64,000 nucleotides of DNA from an uncultured Clostridia bacterium (GTDB taxonomy: Bacteria > Bacillota > Clostridia > Christensenellales > UBA1242), in contig CAKVGK010000002.1 in the NCBI GenBank assembly GCA_934747385.1, positions 258,436-322,435 on the forward strand, given 5' to 3'. The notes under the pieces were generated by a model. The model saw nothing but the letters and a program-made list of their open reading frames with translations, ran no database searches and was not told the origin of the DNA. Positions 4,439 through 62,262 of this stretch are shown here, one piece after another; position 1 is the first letter of the stretch; every line of letters starts with the position of its first letter. Position numbers and translations under genes: made by a program.

Positions 4439-6028
4439 TTATTTTGCAGTGTCTGTGAAACGTGATTCACGAATAACGTTAACTTTAATGTGACCTGGAT
4501 ACTCCAATTGTGCCTCAATTTCTTTTGCAATGTCGTGTGCCAAAACTTGTGCTTCGTCGTCGCTAATTTGTTCAGGTTTAACCATAACTCTTATTTCACG
4601 ACCTGCTTGGATTGCATAGGTTTTTTCAACGCCAGCATGCTTATTGGCAATTGCTTCCAACTCTTGCAAACGTTTGATATAATTCTCCAAACTTTCACGT
4701 CTTGCACCTGGACGAGAACTTGAAATTGCGTCAGCCGCTTGAACAATTACTGCTTCTAGAGTGCGAGGTTCAACGTCGTTGTGGTGCGCTTCAATGCAGT
4801 GAATAACGGCTTCGCTTTCTTTGTATTTGCGTGCCAATTCAACACCAATGCTAACGTGTGTCCCCTCAACTTCGTGGTCAACAGCCTTACCCAAGTCATG
4901 CAACAAACCTGCGCGCCTTGCAACCTTTTCGTTTGCCCCAACCTCGGCTGCCAACATGCCAGCAATGTAGGACACCTCCAAAGAGTGATTAAGCACATTT
5001 TGACCATAACTTGTGCGGTATTTTAACCTACCAAGCACTTTAACTATTTCTGGATGAATGTTGTGAATGTCTGCGTCAAAACAAGCATTTTCGCCTGCTT
5101 CTTTAATAGTTTCTTCAACGTCACGTTGCACTTTTTGAACCAACTCTTCAATACGTGCAGGGTGAATTCTTCCATCCAAAATTAATTTTTCGAGGGCTAT
5201 TCTTGCAACCTCTCTTCTTACTGGGTCAAAGCCTGACAATGTTATTGCTTCAGGTGTGTCATCAACAATAAAGTCAATGCCAGTTGCCGCTTCAAGAGCA
5301 CGAATATTGCGCCCTTCACGACCAATAATTCTACCTTTCATTTCTTCGCTTGGCAATGTAACAACGCTTGTTGTAACTTCACTTGTATTGTCCACCGCAC
5401 ATTTTTGAATTGCCAAAGTTATAATGTTTCTGGCTTTCTTATCGGCCTCTTCCTTTGCTTTATCTTCAATGTCTTTTGCCAATTTAACAGCATCAATTTT
5501 TGCCTCATCAGTATAGCGATCAATGATTACCTGTTTTGCTTGGTCTTTTGTCATTCCGCTGACTTTTTCAAGTTCTTTAACAATGCTCTCTTGCAATTCG
5601 TCAAGCGCATTTTCTTTGCTATTTAACGCTTCAATTTGATTGTAAATGCGTTCTTTGCTTGCTTCGATTTCATCAACTTTTTTGTCCAAAGCGGTTTCAC
5701 GTTTAGAAAGCAACTCTTCACGAGCGTACAAACGTTCTTCACTGCGTTTTGCCTCTTCTCTGCGCTCTTTATTTTCGCGTTCAAATGTTGATTTTAAAAT
5801 ATCAATTTCTTTGCTTGTTTGTTCAACTTGTTCTTTTTTAATTTTTTCTGCTTGAACACGTGCTTCTTCCAAAATTTTATCTGCATTTGCGCGTGCGGAT
5901 TTAGTTTTTTTGTTAATAACAATTGAGGTTATGCCAAAACCAACACCACCACCAACGACCAACATGATAATTGATAAAATTATTGTAAGAGCCGGACTAA
6001 CAGAAAGTAACATATTAGTTAAATTCAT
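4439..6028 (-). CDS. rny: Ribonuclease Y
   Basis: N-terminal TM anchor, long K/E coiled coil, KH domain ([13 protein letters not shown]) and HD domain (LLHDLGKA...HH). Confidence 0.95.
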
Positions 6029-11369: not shown

Positions 11370-13004
11370 ATGAAAAAAATATTACCAATCATTTCTATAT
11401 TGACATTACCAACCATGCTTTGTGCTTGCAACACTGACAATGAAAAAGCAAATATTTCGTTCGACAGTTACAAAGCCAACATTGCAAATTTTCAACAATA
11501 CTTTAAAGAATACAGCAATGCAAGCGACAATCAACTTAACAAATTGTCTTTAAACAAATATCGTTTAACAGTTGCAATGCAAAACGAGGAAAAAACTTTG
11601 GAAAGCCCAAACATTGAGCAAAGGCCTACAATTGTTGAAGAAGGCAAAGATTCTGTTAAACTAACTGAAAATCAGCCAAGAGAGATTAACATTGAACAAA
11701 CCGACAACACTGACAGCAATGTTGAGGAAAAAGAAAATGTGGATCCAAACGTTGAGACTCCAACAGACGTATTGGACGATCAACAACCAGCAATTTTGCC
11801 AAACACAAAGCAGGACAGACCAACAATTGTTGACAAACTGACAGAAAACACCAGTTCAAACGAAAAAGAAAAGCAGACCTTATCAGTTGAACAACTTTCT
11901 CCTCTTTACTCTTTATCTAACGATATTGACAACGAATGTGACGCTTTTTGCGAACTGAAAAAACAACTTAGCAGTGCAATTGTTGAAACACAAAACCTGA
12001 TTGATAAAGTTAATAAAAAAGAGATTGATTTAACAAACGAGCAGCGAATGTTCTTAACTGAGCAGTCTTCACAACTTAAAAATTTGGGCAAACGTTTGGC
12101 GTCGGTCACAACCGAACTTTCATTTAGCGTTAACGATTTAACAACTCTAATAAATTCAAATGCAGACACAAACGAATTGGCAGTTAAATATTTGTTGATT
12201 TTAAACAACTTAAATCAAGGTAATGAAATGCTTGAAAACAGCCTGTATTCACTCAATATGATTAATCAGTTATTGTCATTGCCAAACTCAATTCCTGGCA
12301 ACAATTATGGCAGAATTTTGTATGGTTTTAGGCAAAACGAGCAACCACCAGTGATTTATGATTATTTGATTGATAAAGACGGAAATTTGACGGAAAATAA
12401 AGATGCTAAAGACGCAAACGAAAACAAAACCGATTACAGCAATGACAATTCAGCACAAAGCGAGGAAAATTCAACCACAGAGCAAAACGCAACCGACGAC
12501 ACAAAAAAACGCACTTGGTTAACACCAAATATTGATAGTTATGGTAATTTTCGCTCTAATATAGACACCTTTTATAACACCGCTTTGTGGAACAGATATA
12601 ACTACGGCAGGAATTATGGCTATGGAAATTTTTATGGTGCTCCAAACGGATTTGGCGGGTACAATCAAGGCATGTACAATAATTTTTACAATCCTAACTA
12701 CAATCAAAATTACAATCCAAACATGCTTAACAACTACGAAAACACAAACAATGAAGGCAACGCATTAAACACAACAAATAGTGTTAAACAAACACAAAAT
12801 ACACAAGATATTCAAAAGCAATCTAAGAAAAAGTTTAAATTAAAAAGGAATATTGACACTTACAAAAATGACAATACTCCAACTCCAAAACAAAGATTTG
12901 CAAAGGTTAAAACTTCAATAGATGGTTTTTTTGCAAAATTCAAAAAAAACAACAAAAACAATTTGAACAATCCAACTTATAATTTTGAAGAAAACAATAA
13001 TTAA
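11370..13004 (+). CDS. Putative lipoprotein with a long low-complexity region rich in N, Y, Q and G
   Basis: AAGGAG RBS. Signal peptide ends in a lipobox-like MLCAC. The C-terminal third is dominated by N/Y/G repeats (GYGNFYGAPNGFGGYNQGMYNNFYNPNYNQNYNPN). Confidence 0.7.
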   Translation: MKKILPIISILTLPTMLCACNTDNEKANISFDSYKANIANFQQYFKEYSNASDNQLNKLSLNKYRLTVAMQNEEKTLESPNIEQRPTIVEEGKDSVKLTENQPREINIEQTDNTDSNVEEKENVDPNVETPTDVLDDQQPAILPNTKQDRPTIVDKLTENTSSNEKEKQTLSVEQLSPLYSLSNDIDNECDAFCELKKQLSSAIVETQNLIDKVNKKEIDLTNEQRMFLTEQSSQLKNLGKRLASVTTELSFSVNDLTTLINSNADTNELAVKYLLILNNLNQGNEMLENSLYSLNMINQLLSLPNSIPGNNYGRILYGFRQNEQPPVIYDYLIDKDGNLTENKDAKDANENKTDYSNDNSAQSEENSTTEQNATDDTKKRTWLTPNIDSYGNFRSNIDTFYNTALWNRYNYGRNYGYGNFYGAPNGFGGYNQGMYNNFYNPNYNQNYNPNMLNNYENTNNEGNALNTTNSVKQTQNTQDIQKQSKKKFKLKRNIDTYKNDNTPTPKQRFAKVKTSIDGFFAKFKKNNKNNLNNPTYNFEENNN

Positions 13005-59485: not shown

Positions 59486-59551
59486 TTCAAATTTAAACAT
59501 TCAAATCAAAAAAAACAATAAAAAAATTAAGTTTGTTGAAAATACAAAAAA

Positions 59552-59577
59552 AATTCACCGATGTGGTGAATTTTTTT
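59552..59577. terminator. Bidirectional intrinsic terminator between the ABC permease and the PHP gene
   Basis: AATTCACC GATGT GGTGAATT hairpin with A8 on the left and T7 on the right. Confidence 0.8.
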
Positions 59578-59579
59578 AT

Positions 59580-60428
59580 CTAATCGCTTTTTAACAACGC
59601 TTTTAAAATTGTAACATTTTTAACACTAAAATTATAATTTTCAGCAGAAGTTTCTCCTATTTTAACGGCTTTATTCTTACCATGATAATCACTCCCCGCA
59701 GACAGTAGTAAATCATATTTGTCTGCAAGTTTTTTTATCATTTCTATTTCTTGATAGTTGTATAGTGAATAAAAACATTCTAAAGCATTTAAACCGCAAG
59801 TTTTTAAAAAGGCAATCCTTTTTTCAACAATTTCTATTGGAACTCTTTTTTCACCTACTCCACCTAGTGGATGAGCAAGACAAGTTACTATTTTTTCTTC
59901 TGACAACACTTTAACTACTTTGCTTGTAGAAATTTTTAAATCTGGCAGTTTGTGATACAGGTATTTGCTAATTGCTTCTTGAATTGTGTTTGCATAACCT
60001 AATTTAATTAAAATATTTGCTATCAAAACTTTATTTGGATTACTACTTGAAGAAATTTGTTTTAAAAATTTATCTGGAAGAATAATGTTAAAATCCTCTT
60101 TTAAATGTTGTAACCTATAATCTATTCGTTTTAATCTTGATTCGTGTATCTCTTTAATCAATTCATTTAGTGCTTTATTGTTCAAATCATACCCGTAAGC
60201 TAGCAAATGTACATTACCATCCTCATCTTTAGTCGAAAACTCTATTCCATTAATAAAAGTGATCTTTTTGTTTTTGAATTTTTTTACAACATTACAGCAG
60301 CCCTCAATAGTATCATGGTCTGTTAACGCCATAATTTTAATATGTTTTTTTATGTTTTTTCTTATAATTTTAATTGGATCCTCTGATCCGTCCGAATAAA
60401 TACTGTGTTGATGTAAATCTATTTCCAT
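59580..60428 (-). CDS. PHP-domain metal-dependent phosphoesterase (TrpH/YciV-like)
   Basis: MEIDLHQHSIYSDGS...ALTDHDT N-terminal PHP motifs, a later LAHP motif and a C-terminal GSDYHG. The ~280-aa size matches stand-alone TrpH-type PHP proteins. Confidence 0.8.
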   Translation of the reverse strand: MEIDLHQHSIYSDGSEDPIKIIRKNIKKHIKIMALTDHDTIEGCCNVVKKFKNKKITFINGIEFSTKDEDGNVHLLAYGYDLNNKALNELIKEIHESRLKRIDYRLQHLKEDFNIILPDKFLKQISSSSNPNKVLIANILIKLGYANTIQEAISKYLYHKLPDLKISTSKVVKVLSEEKIVTCLAHPLGGVGEKRVPIEIVEKRIAFLKTCGLNALECFYSLYNYQEIEMIKKLADKYDLLLSAGSDYHGKNKAVKIGETSAENYNFSVKNVTILKALLKSD

Positions 60429-60455
60429 ATCTTTCCCTTACCATTGAAATTAAGT

Positions 60456-60953
60456 CTAATCTTGATCCAAAGATAAATCATTGTTTTCCATTCTGTTTAA
60501 TTCTTGTTCAAATTTAGAAAAAATCGAATTTGGAATATCCAATTTAACAATAGCATCACATTCTTTTATTTGCTTGTTTTTTAATTTTTGATTTAAAGAT
60601 TTTAAATCCTCCAAATTATATTTTTCAAAAACTATAAAAGCATCTTTGTTAGCCATCACAAATTGAAAGAACTGAAAACTTGGTAAATTTTTCCAGTTTG
60701 AAACAATGTTGGTTTTTAGATGAATTTGATTAACCTTGTCATTATAATTTTTGATTTTGGATAAAACATTTTCACTCAATGAAAAATCAAAATTTTCCGA
60801 CCCAATATTTTTAACAAAATTCAAATCGCTTTCAATTGTATGCAAAAAATATTCAATAAACACATTAAATTCATTAACTTTTGCTTTAGTTAAAATTTTT
60901 CTTGCATTAGAATACAATCTTTCATTCTTCATCATAATTCCTTCCTTACTCAT
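60456..60953 (-). CDS. Hypothetical 165-aa protein, translationally coupled to the upstream kinase-like gene
   Basis: Its ATG overlaps the stop of the 421-aa ORF (ATGAGTAA). Rich in N, K, E and F with an acidic C-terminus. No motif recognised. Confidence 0.55.
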   Translation of the reverse strand: MSKEGIMMKNERLYSNARKILTKAKVNEFNVFIEYFLHTIESDLNFVKNIGSENFDFSLSENVLSKIKNYNDKVNQIHLKTNIVSNWKNLPSFQFFQFVMANKDAFIVFEKYNLEDLKSLNQKLKNKQIKECDAIVKLDIPNSIFSKFEQELNRMENNDLSLDQD

Positions 60954-62211
60954 TATTTATAATCGACTCAACCCCAACATTTGTATGTTGTTCAATTATA
61001 TGGGCCATATTATTAATTGCTTCAATATATTTTTCATCATTCAAAATTTGAGTGCAATTTTTACTTACCATTTTTTCATCAAATTTCATTCCTGGCACAC
61101 GATATGTAACAGCAGGACTCATTATTTTTGTTGACAATTGATTTGTTAGTTTCATTAACATTTCTTTATCTTTTTTAGACAAACCCTGGCTTTTCAAATA
61201 GTTAATGTCAACATCATTCTTTTTAAGTTGTTGCATCAACAAATTTGTCACTTGTTTTTTTATCTCTTTATTTATGCTCTGTCCTTGTTGGAAATATTCT
61301 AACAACTCCTCATTTGAATGAGCATGCAAAGAAAGTGAAATCATTTCTTGCGGTGGCATTCTCATTCCAAGACTTTCGGCAGAAAGGTCAGAATTATAAC
61401 TTTTGCAAATATCTAGCTTTTCTGCACAATTGTTAATTAAATAAAGATAAGTCATTAATGGTTTGTTACCACATTCTTCTAACGCTTCATATTCAACCAA
61501 CCTAGGAATTTCATTCTTTGCTATTTTCTTTAAACACCTATTGGAATTACGGACTTGACAAACTTTTATATCTGCATGAACCAAACTTACATTAATTCTG
61601 CTTGCTGTTTTTGAGTATTTATCAATTAATTTTTCCATTTTTTCGGGATTATCGCCTATTTTTTCTTGAATAAAATTAATTTTATTTTCTAATAATGCTC
61701 CAATCATATAGTTTTTCATCACAACACCAGACATAGCATGCATTAATGGATGATTTATATTTACATTATAATGCTTTGCCAATTGCTCTTTTATCCAATC
61801 TTGATCTGCATGATAGGCACCTTCATTCTGTTTTATAGATTCAATAATTGTAGACTTGCCTGCTGCTGGTGGACCTAAAACAAATGAAACAGATCCATCT
61901 TTTCCTATTGCTGGATTATCTAATTGTTCTTGAACGACTCTTGAAACTAAATTTTTGGCGAATTCTTCAAATTCTTTATTTATATTTGGAGAAGTATTAT
62001 TTGAATGCGAAAGAATAGCTTTGGCCAAGTGGTCAAATTCTTGTTCTTTTTTAGAATCTACAGAAGACAATATTTCTTTTGTTCTATTTTCAGCTTTAAC
62101 TTTAGTTTCGTTATAGAATTGCTCAATTTCTTCTATTGTTTTTGAGTTTGAAGAACTAGCAGCAATCCAACAATCAGGTGGTTGCAAACCATTCAAATAA
62201 TTATTATCCAA
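60946..62211 (-). CDS. Zeta-toxin-like / AAA_33-type P-loop kinase domain protein with long N- and C-terminal extensions
   Basis: Walker A LGPPAAGKSTII, followed by YHADQDWIKEQ, resembles the zeta/PezT arrangement (P-loop then an Asp-containing strand). TTG start 5 nt after GAGGTG. No other domain recognised. Confidence 0.6.
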   Translation of the reverse strand: MDNNYLNGLQPPDCWIAASSSNSKTIEEIEQFYNETKVKAENRTKEILSSVDSKKEQEFDHLAKAILSHSNNTSPNINKEFEEFAKNLVSRVVQEQLDNPAIGKDGSVSFVLGPPAAGKSTIIESIKQNEGAYHADQDWIKEQLAKHYNVNINHPLMHAMSGVVMKNYMIGALLENKINFIQEKIGDNPEKMEKLIDKYSKTASRINVSLVHADIKVCQVRNSNRCLKKIAKNEIPRLVEYEALEECGNKPLMTYLYLINNCAEKLDICKSYNSDLSAESLGMRMPPQEMISLSLHAHSNEELLEYFQQGQSINKEIKKQVTNLLMQQLKKNDVDINYLKSQGLSKKDKEMLMKLTNQLSTKIMSPAVTYRVPGMKFDEKMVSKNCTQILNDEKYIEAINNMAHIIEQHTNVGVESIINNE

Positions 62212-62262
62212 TTTGTCACCTCAACAAGGCATATTTTATTCGTCTTATAACAATGTATATAA

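Follow-up and report, generated by a model that had tools for sequence, protein, structure and literature searches.

What is a compact, AT-rich block of three genes doing right after ftsZ, the cell-division gene, in a Clostridia bacterium from the gut, and what might its products do together? The block lies near the end of a 64,000-nucleotide (nt) stretch of contig CAKVGK010000002.1, hereafter the window, whose positions serve as coordinates throughout; by its FtsZ the host was placed in Candidatus Onthoplasma (Christensenellales). A first-pass annotation, made from the letters alone, had seen three packed minus-strand open reading frames (ORFs) of 421, 165 and 282 amino acids (aa), and the ORF list and the sequence bear this out:

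60946..62211, minus strand: kinase gene, 421 aa, TTG start
60456..60953, minus strand: small partner gene, 165 aa as maximal ORF, product all-helical in the predicted model
59580..60428, minus strand: gene for a PHP phosphoesterase, 282 aa, RNase AM/TrpH/Cv1693 type

We read this cassette, with a confidence that stands about midway, as a zeta-type toxin-antitoxin-like module in which the kinase would be opposed both by a protein inhibitor and by a phosphoesterase that erases its product. The argument starts from the proteins themselves, of which the kinase is the most telling.

The three proteins

By profile, fold and catalytic residues the 421-aa protein belongs to the zeta/PezT superfamily. 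Pfam Zeta_toxin (PF06414) matches aa 108-249 with 36.1 bits against a gathering cutoff of 22.3, and the same family is the precomputed assignment of all 7 relatives of the kinase. The core spans roughly aa 100-270 and is flanked by helical extensions of ~100 aa on the N-terminal and ~150 aa on the C-terminal side; in the AlphaFold2 (AF2) model the core has a predicted local distance difference test score (pLDDT) of about 80-95 and the extensions are poorly predicted. A Foldseek search with this model returned zeta toxin at the top (3q8x/1gvn, E 1e-6, probability 1.0, template-modelling (TM) score 0.62), then PezT (2p5t), then CthPnkp and AvrRxo1. The likeness to zeta/PezT kinases that had been suspected by eye is thus upheld by a Pfam score above the cutoff and by the best structural matches, and the protein does adopt a zeta-type fold.

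Catalytic motifs were mapped with MAFFT, using bridging intermediate relatives, onto a zeta reference sequence checked to be 100% identical to annotated Enterococcus plasmid zeta toxins; hmmsearch (PDB) and hhalign comparisons of the kinase family with zeta and PDB kinases aligned the P-loop only. The motifs are located as follows:

61852..61875, minus strand: Walker A, G113-PPAAGK119-S120, invariant in the family alignment and aligned with zeta GQPGSGK46T
61798..61806, minus strand: D136-Q-D138 of HADxDxIK, D138 being zeta Asp67 in the MAFFT alignment
61651..61665, minus strand: E183-K-I-G-D187, E183 being zeta E116 and KIGD replacing zeta GTXR

K119, D138 and E183 align to zeta K46, D67 and E116, and both GPPAAGK119S and the D138 in HADxDxIK are invariant across the kinase family. 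Asp67 of zeta (D66 in PezT) is the base that deprotonates the acceptor hydroxyl, and GTXR is the motif that binds UDP-N-acetylglucosamine (UDP-GlcNAc, UNAG) (PMC6362051). The equivalent of the latter (G117-T-G-R120) is missing: KIGD or KVGD stands in its place across the family, and KVGD or KIGH in distant members. With the Walker A lysine, the aspartate and the glutamate intact but GTXR replaced in all members, the kinase looks catalytically competent by its residues, yet it is unlikely to be a UNAG kinase.

The 282-aa protein was recognised at first reading as a TrpH-like PHP phosphoesterase, and rightly so. It matches Pfam PHP (PF02811) with 52 bits and the NCBIfam models for RNase RNM with 110.5 bits (equivalog cutoff 375) and for 3′,5′-bisphosphate phosphatase with 105.6 bits (equivalog cutoff 400); it is a member of the RNase AM/Cv1693 family, though not an equivalog. 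Its relatives in the PDB are 3e0f, 9etk, 2yb1 and 7ug9, the closest solved ones being the Cv1693 3′-phosphatase of adenosine 3′,5′-bisphosphate (pAp) and RNase AM; it consists of a PHP barrel with an insertion domain, and the latter can be aligned to 3e0f and 9etk. All trinuclear-metal ligands (H6, H8, D13, H38, E63, H74, H186, D247 and H249) are kept in the cassette PHPs. The 5′-phosphate pocket keeps R98 and R101, with a likewise conserved lysine, K132, in third place; the motifs AHPLGGVGE, ECFYSLYN and GSDYHGKNK are conserved specifically in the cassette PHPs. RNase AM family members are 5′-phosphate-dependent 5′-to-3′ exonucleases on short oligonucleotides, acting best on 3′,5′-pAp, and Cv1693/RNase AM relatives take the 3′-phosphate off pAp or cut the first 3′-phosphodiester of 5′-phosphorylated oligonucleotides (PMC9410882, PMC11528712).

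The 165-aa protein had been described as lacking any recognisable motif, and the family libraries agree, with no match in Pfam, NCBIfam, PADLOC or PHROG models. Its AF2 model is all-helical and of good quality (pLDDT 87, predicted TM score 0.80), and the search with it gave no fold match in the PDB (best E 1.2) or BFVD (best E 0.43). Neither a Pfam or NCBIfam match nor a PDB match links it to the antitoxins epsilon and PezA, which are three-helix bundles with or without a helix-turn-helix. An alignment query recovered 11 close homologues, where a word-index search with the small protein alone had returned the query only, and a full HMMER scan of 1.84 billion representatives gave ~20 distant ones. 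Weak BLAST and hidden Markov model signals raised the idea that the protein duplicates or imitates the C-terminal extension of the kinase, which we rejected on profile-profile comparison (probability 0.4%, E 0.14). From its position we presume it to be the kinase inhibitor, i.e. a type II antitoxin.

An acquired cassette that recurs as a unit

Kinase relatives are only 7 among 5.8e9 protein clusters. In every one of the recovered contexts (L002-L008, L012-L022 and L103) a small-protein homologue of 153-166 aa stands directly upstream of the zeta-type kinase, and wherever the contig reaches, a 280-aa PHP gene lies divergently 102-144 nt upstream of the small gene; on short contigs the truncated upstream ORFs still start MIDLHxHT. 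The trio recurs in at least six other metagenomic lineages, at unrelated sites, in the arrangement <PHP | small> kinase>, and with the window counted the PHP gene is adjacent in 7/7 lineages with informative flanks. By pairwise BLAST the window proteins are genuine homologues of comparable divergence, 36-44% (kinase), 30-40% (small protein) and 39-44% (PHP) identical to those of the relatives, whose neighbourhoods represent at least five unrelated contexts, among them MarR with dCMP deaminase, His_Phos_1 with transglutaminase, YfhO with adh_short and HNH with a DNA methylase. Even in the distant pair of L103 the small gene adjoins a zeta-type gene.

In the relatives either 1-3 nt lie between the small gene and the kinase gene or the two share 8 nt; the kinase Shine-Dalgarno (SD) sequence lies inside the conserved GDD-stop codons of the small protein, and the pair is translationally coupled. 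A TTGAC(A/G)-17-TATAxT promoter precedes the small gene. Given this order and promoter, the window copy (kinase, small gene, PHP) is a rearranged derivative that lacks that promoter. The gene order had been noted as unlike epsilon/zeta, where a small antitoxin gene comes first; this holds for the window but reflects a local rearrangement, the relatives all having the small gene before the kinase.

Several loci carry further genes. In L020 (121-3970) the small and kinase pair adjoins convergent HNH_2 endonuclease and DNA methylase genes, possibly a defence island; the contig begins too near the small gene to show a PHP, and the same small protein has one upstream in L021. Within 7 kb of the trio, L002 holds a second, divergent PHP gene of 312 aa, 23-27% identical to the cassette PHPs, along with a His_Phos_1 phosphatase gene and an HD-domain gene (the three extras lie at 111-1049, 4787-5482 and 11404-12072). 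In L009 (249-5989; also L010 and L011) a distant 331-aa zeta-like kinase, P0007, is encoded ~320 nt 3′ of an OLD-TOPRIM ATPase and a UvrD helicase, a Gabija-like pair; an overlapping 74-aa gene comes after it, which makes the order toxin-first.

At the window locus two further features frame the genes:

62212..62262, minus strand: spacer of 51 nt from the ftsZ stop (62263) to the kinase TTG (62211), with SD GAGGTGA at 62216-62222
59547..59577, unstranded: bidirectional intrinsic terminator, 13-bp stem with T-runs on both sides, common to the convergent ABC permease gene

The TTG start and the hairpin shared with the permease gene are both as the first-pass annotation had them. So are the 51-nt spacer, the 8-nt overlap of the first two genes as maximal ORFs (ATGAGTAA) and the 27-nt gap between the second and third. 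One part of the spacing calls for revision: homologue alignment and a GGAAGGA SD favour an internal ATG of the small gene, which suggests 60935 or 60932 as its true start, and the overlap with the kinase gene may therefore be apparent only. A minus-strand scan of the interval between ftsZ and the kinase predicted no terminator, so that the cassette is not insulated from ftsZ transcription, and no convincing promoter. The only known RNA element to come up, the antitoxin RNA OrzO-P, stays below its Rfam threshold (31.9 bits, gathering score 60, E 0.03); the match, at 59547-59621 on the minus strand, overlaps the hairpin of the terminator as well as the PHP gene's 3′ end and is probably due to chance.

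Composition sets the three genes apart from the other 55 window ORFs of at least 150 aa. Their GC content is 0.30 (kinase), 0.24 (small) and 0.28 (PHP) against 0.366 ± 0.031, and GC at third codon positions (GC3) is 0.213, 0.223 and 0.198, respectively, against 0.347 ± 0.038. All three GC3 values fall below the minimum of the other ORFs (0.235), and the cassette proteins have a summed fraction of N, K and I of 0.28-0.33 against 0.24 ± 0.03; the AT-richness and the N/K/I-rich proteins first seen by eye are therefore measurable in all three genes. The only other long window ORF with similarly low GC, at 10-711 on the plus strand (GC 0.278, GC3 0.248, N+K+I 0.31), sits at the window edge and may be another foreign gene.

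The comparison of the region behind ftsZ across relatives points the same way. The best Onthoplasma congeners share 89-93% FtsZ identity with the window host. In the 80 ftsZ loci retrieved, tblastn found no match to any of the three cassette proteins. Synteny of ftsA-ftsZ, ABC permease, ABC ATPase and NMT1 is kept in 32 of these loci, and 0/32 carry cassette genes, which led us to reject a housekeeping interpretation and answers the question of clade-wide conservation in the negative. Between ftsZ and the convergent permease, 20/32 hold 47-295 nt only, including the terminator hairpin, and the remaining 12/32 hold unrelated cargo of 0.4-5.7 kb, including fusions of Sigma70_r4 with the C-terminal domain of the RNA polymerase alpha subunit (alpha-CTD), a GIY-YIG protein and unknowns. 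The arrangement seen in the window itself is found again on four contigs. The cassette terminator occupies the position of the ancestral terminator behind ftsZ, and the sequence 3′ of the hairpin is homologous to that of the empty-site congeners. Given the empty site in congeners and the compositional anomaly, the cassette is horizontally acquired, as had been proposed, and the gap between ftsZ and the terminator in Candidatus Onthoplasma is a variable slot for accessory genes.

The insertion contains no integrase or transposase, and no flanking direct or inverted repeats rise above the AT-rich background. We considered and rejected a plasmid or phage origin, since tblastn of the kinase against PLSDB and INPHARED came back empty and PHROG matches were weak and generic; pattern scans of viral and metagenome contigs gave no confirmed relatives, a weak negative because the AT-rich degenerate patterns turned up chance matches only and missed known trio-bearing JGI contigs. 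In the relatives the cassettes have ~29-33% GC, for the most part only a few points from the flanking DNA of their hosts, which is consistent with a lower-GC donor.

The first reading had also remarked on the absence of spoIIGA-sigE-sigG behind ftsZ. The genes are indeed absent here, but the cassette is not the cause, because the ancestral state in the genus is ftsZ, then the terminator, then the convergent ABC permease. In L038 (9948-11668) ftsZ is followed by a 267-aa ORF, whose N-terminus looks SpoIIGA-like by eye, and by a 271-aa ORF that looks like a sigma factor; in most of the genus this place is taken by the ABC operon. Elsewhere the slot is filled in various ways. Sigma70 region 4 is fused to two or three alpha-CTDs in L055 (11309-12817) and L057 (11908-13794), proteins of 502 and 628 aa; an alpha-CTD-only version of 153 aa occupies it in L052 (2954-3415), and in L052 and L057 an unknown protein of ~120 aa with a common KLPYP[IF]F motif precedes the alpha-CTD protein. 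The slot of L033 (11176-16838) contains a GIY-YIG protein, three ~200-aa paralogues with hydrophobic N-termini and a 521-aa protein, that of L027 (11167-12591) a 474-aa hydrophobic and apparently membrane protein, and those of L045, L047, L056 and L058 unknown proteins.

A proposed function and its alternatives

A mechanism that would unite the three proteins can be sketched as follows. The kinase would use ATP to phosphorylate a hydroxyl on a nucleotide-containing small molecule other than UDP-GlcNAc, most likely a ribose 3′-OH on a nucleotide or dinucleotide cofactor, in the manner of AvrRxo1 and NAD, and would thereby act as a growth-arresting toxin. The small protein would inhibit it stoichiometrically, as a type II antitoxin, and the PHP would hydrolyse the kinase product, by removing the installed phosphate or otherwise destroying the product, as a second, type IV-like antidote that makes intoxication reversible. 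Were the inhibitor to be lost or displaced, be it by stress, by phage or because the locus is lost, the kinase would make more product than the PHP can handle and the cells would stop growing. Rearranged, deprived of its promoter and enclosed between the ftsZ stop and the terminator, the window cassette is probably transcribed by read-through from ftsZ. The main argument for an eraser is chemical: a zeta-family kinase, AvrRxo1, makes a 3′-phosphorylated nucleotide, 3′-NADP (PMC5087710), and Cv1693/RNase AM enzymes remove the 3′-phosphate of a 5′-phosphorylated adenosine. The accessory character of the module follows from its rarity, its place in a variable slot and the HNH and methylase genes that adjoin one relative.

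A number of observations weigh against this proposal. The AF2 model of the kinase is of moderate confidence only overall (pLDDT 70). An inhibitor role is read from gene context only, the small protein having no similarity to epsilon or PezA, no structural match to AvrRxo2 at E <= 0.001 and, by family scans and model search, no recognisable DNA-binding domain; kinase and partner are both acidic in the relatives, unlike many toxin-antitoxin pairs, in which an acidic antitoxin faces a basic toxin. P0019 (E 6e-23), which among outgroup homologues comes closest to the small protein, has neither a zeta kinase nor a PHP as neighbour. With scores so far under the equivalog cutoffs, the specificity of the PHP may have diverged, and its substrate need not be a small molecule, as the family is also exoribonucleolytic. 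PADLOC-DB 2.0 gave only marginal matches for the window proteins (all E >= 0.0027) and none better than E 1e-3 for the relatives, in keeping with the earlier remark that the cassette matches no familiar defence architecture. Hints of defence are limited to the HNH and methylase genes beside one relative and the distant zeta-like gene beside the Gabija-like pair. The toxin-antitoxin or defence label is something we infer, as are the toxicity and substrate of the kinase, the part of the small protein as inhibitor, that of the PHP as eraser, and the purpose, be it addiction, stress stasis or phage defence by abortive infection.

P0019 itself may be an orphan partner or antitoxin. Its genes (L104:6531-7028 and L105:6227-6724) lie between a radical-SAM gene and a 147-aa unknown ORF, with recJ, relA and rpsO in the vicinity.

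Kinase and PHP could instead cooperate on RNA ends, an explanation that we hold to be unlikely. The kinase would then be a polynucleotide 5′-OH kinase acting on, for instance, fragments left by ribonuclease toxins or by phage infection, the RNase AM-like PHP would degrade the resulting 5′-phosphorylated RNA, and the small protein would regulate or target the pair; functionally, the Grc3 kinase feeding Rat1 is comparable. CthPnkp (4jst/4gp6, E 6e-4, TMt 0.6-0.67) and Pnkp1 are indeed among the Foldseek matches, but zeta and PezT outmatch them and cover a larger, zeta-specific fold (E 1e-6, 241-341 aligned columns). Likewise, the best PHROG match is 'polynucleotide kinase' (E 4.5e-5) and AAA_33 is found below threshold, whereas Zeta_toxin passes its Pfam cutoff. 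The acceptor motif D-x-D-x-hydrophobic-K is that of zeta (DNDTFK) and not Pnk-like, and a translationally coupled small partner is typical of toxin-inhibitor pairs rather than of RNA-repair operons. What the PHP contributes to this explanation is that 5′-phosphate-dependent 5′-3′ exonucleolysis is the best-documented role of its family (PMC9410882, PMC11528712) and that the pocket is kept here.

It is improbable, in our view, that small gene and kinase form a two-gene zeta-type toxin-antitoxin pair with the PHP travelling as a functionally unrelated passenger. TrpH-like PHP genes are common housekeeping genes, and in the relatives the PHP has a start of its own on the other strand, outside the small-kinase operon; the L103 pair has an ABC-transporter gene upstream instead, its downstream side lying beyond the contig end. 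Against this, PHP adjacency persists in all lineages with informative flanks, through differing contexts and through the rearrangement in the window; PHP divergence tracks that of the kinase, and the gene has the same low GC3 as the rest of the insertion and is missing at all 32 syntenic congener sites. We conclude from this linkage, divergence and composition that the PHP belongs to the unit. In L002 the separate PHP could cover any housekeeping role.

No more probable is a non-toxic metabolic or salvage cassette, in which kinase, phosphatase and an accessory subunit would set the phosphorylation of a nucleotide, cofactor or sugar-nucleotide acquired in the gut: a preprint describes a plant zeta-domain protein as an NAD+ kinase (bioRxiv 10.1101/521658), the operon context is housekeeping, PADLOC is negative and mobility genes and flanking repeats are lacking, but the distribution is extremely sparse and patchy, presence varies among congeners in a slot with unrelated cargo, the composition is foreign to the host, the translational coupling is toxin-antitoxin-like, and a kinase facing an opposing phosphatase without pathway genes would be a futile cycle.

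Relation to known systems

Returning to the toxin-antitoxin-like module with inhibitor and eraser, its nearest known counterparts are epsilon/zeta of pSM19035 and PezAT of Streptococcus pneumoniae. They have in common with the cassette the kinase fold and Pfam family, the Walker A lysine, the acceptor-activating aspartate, the glutamate and the D-x-D-x-hydrophobic-K motif, and, as in the relatives of the cassette, a small helical gene directly upstream and coupled. Differences are as marked. The cassette kinase has KIGD for GTXR and ~100-aa N-terminal and ~150-aa C-terminal extensions; the partner, at 153-165 aa, is unrelated to epsilon and PezA in sequence and fold and has no recognisable DNA-binding domain; and an obligate third gene encodes a PHP phosphoesterase, where omega-epsilon-zeta has the omega repressor in that place (PMC10532202). 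The canonical position of the antitoxin gene upstream is found in all related lineages but not in the window. By these features the cassette is not a canonical epsilon/zeta or PezAT system. A full-text literature search found no paper joining zeta toxins with PHP or other phosphoesterase partners, and a review of PezAT (PMC10532202) leaves phosphatases unmentioned.

A further counterpart is AvrRxo1-AvrRxo2 (Arc1) of Xanthomonas. AvrRxo1 is a zeta-fold kinase of ~420 aa that does not use UNAG, as is probable for the cassette kinase too, and the gene for its inhibitor is found downstream of its own, like the small gene in the window (PMC5087710), which makes the kinase-first order less unusual. 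Its product, 3′-NADP, is a 3′-phosphorylated nucleotide plausibly open to a PHP of the Cv1693/RNase AM type. On the other hand, AvrRxo1 is a weaker structural match to the cassette kinase than zeta (E 1e-3 vs 1e-6); the small-protein model had no match at E <= 0.001 in a PDB that includes AvrRxo1-ORF1:ORF2 complexes; and AvrRxo1 is secreted by a plant pathogen as a type III effector, the cassette being chromosomal in a gut Clostridia bacterium. The AvrRxo1 paper (PMC5087710) does not mention a phosphoesterase partner.

The proposed logic of a phosphotransferase toxin with a binder and a product hydrolase has its precedent in FaRel, a small alarmone synthetase that acts as a toxin (toxSAS), flanked by one antitoxin of type II and one of type IV, a hydrolase that degrades the toxin product (PMC7229694). 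FaRel, with AT2faRel and the small alarmone hydrolase (SAH) ATfaRel, shares no homology with the cassette: a RelA-SpoT-type pyrophosphokinase and an HD-domain SAH stand against a P-loop zeta kinase and a trinuclear-metal PHP. The roles of the FaRel components were shown experimentally and those of the cassette are inferred. For the PHP itself, RNase AM (YciV/TrpH) and Cv1693 (cog0613) have in common with it the barrel with insertion domain, the metal ligands and the RxxR pocket, and their chemistry is hydrolysis at the 3′-phosphate of a 5′-phosphorylated nucleotide (PMC9410882, PMC11528712). The cassette PHPs differ in the third pocket residue (Lys for Arg), in their own motifs and in scores far under the equivalog cutoffs, and, as accessory genes tied firmly to a zeta kinase, they are not housekeeping genes.

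Taken together, the cassette is an undescribed, rare zeta-type toxin-antitoxin-like variant in which the fold of the partner is new and the PHP obligate, with a mechanism that we propose from context and family chemistry. The fuller claim of a zeta-kinase system with a dedicated PHP product eraser, a new antitoxin fold and a new non-UNAG substrate, probably a ribose 3′-OH, we advance tentatively and regard as rather doubtful.

Known substrate positions of the zeta family are the 3′-OH of UNAG, the 4′-OH of UDP-sugars and the 3′-OH of NAD; to our knowledge, several members, e.g. PezT of M. tuberculosis, still lack identified targets. A kinase clade locked to a 3′-phosphoesterase whose chemistry is known offers a direct biochemical handle on this problem, since the PHP substrate should equal the kinase product. 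With no intervening terminator, the putative toxin may also be transcriptionally tied to the cell-division operon of its host. If the proposal is true, a double-antidote design of binder plus eraser would reach beyond toxSAS into the zeta superfamily, with a new antitoxin fold and a conflict-system role for the RNase AM/TrpH family; the cassette would then be the founding zeta-kinase system with a dedicated PHP eraser, and would give PHPs of the RNase AM type a new physiological role.

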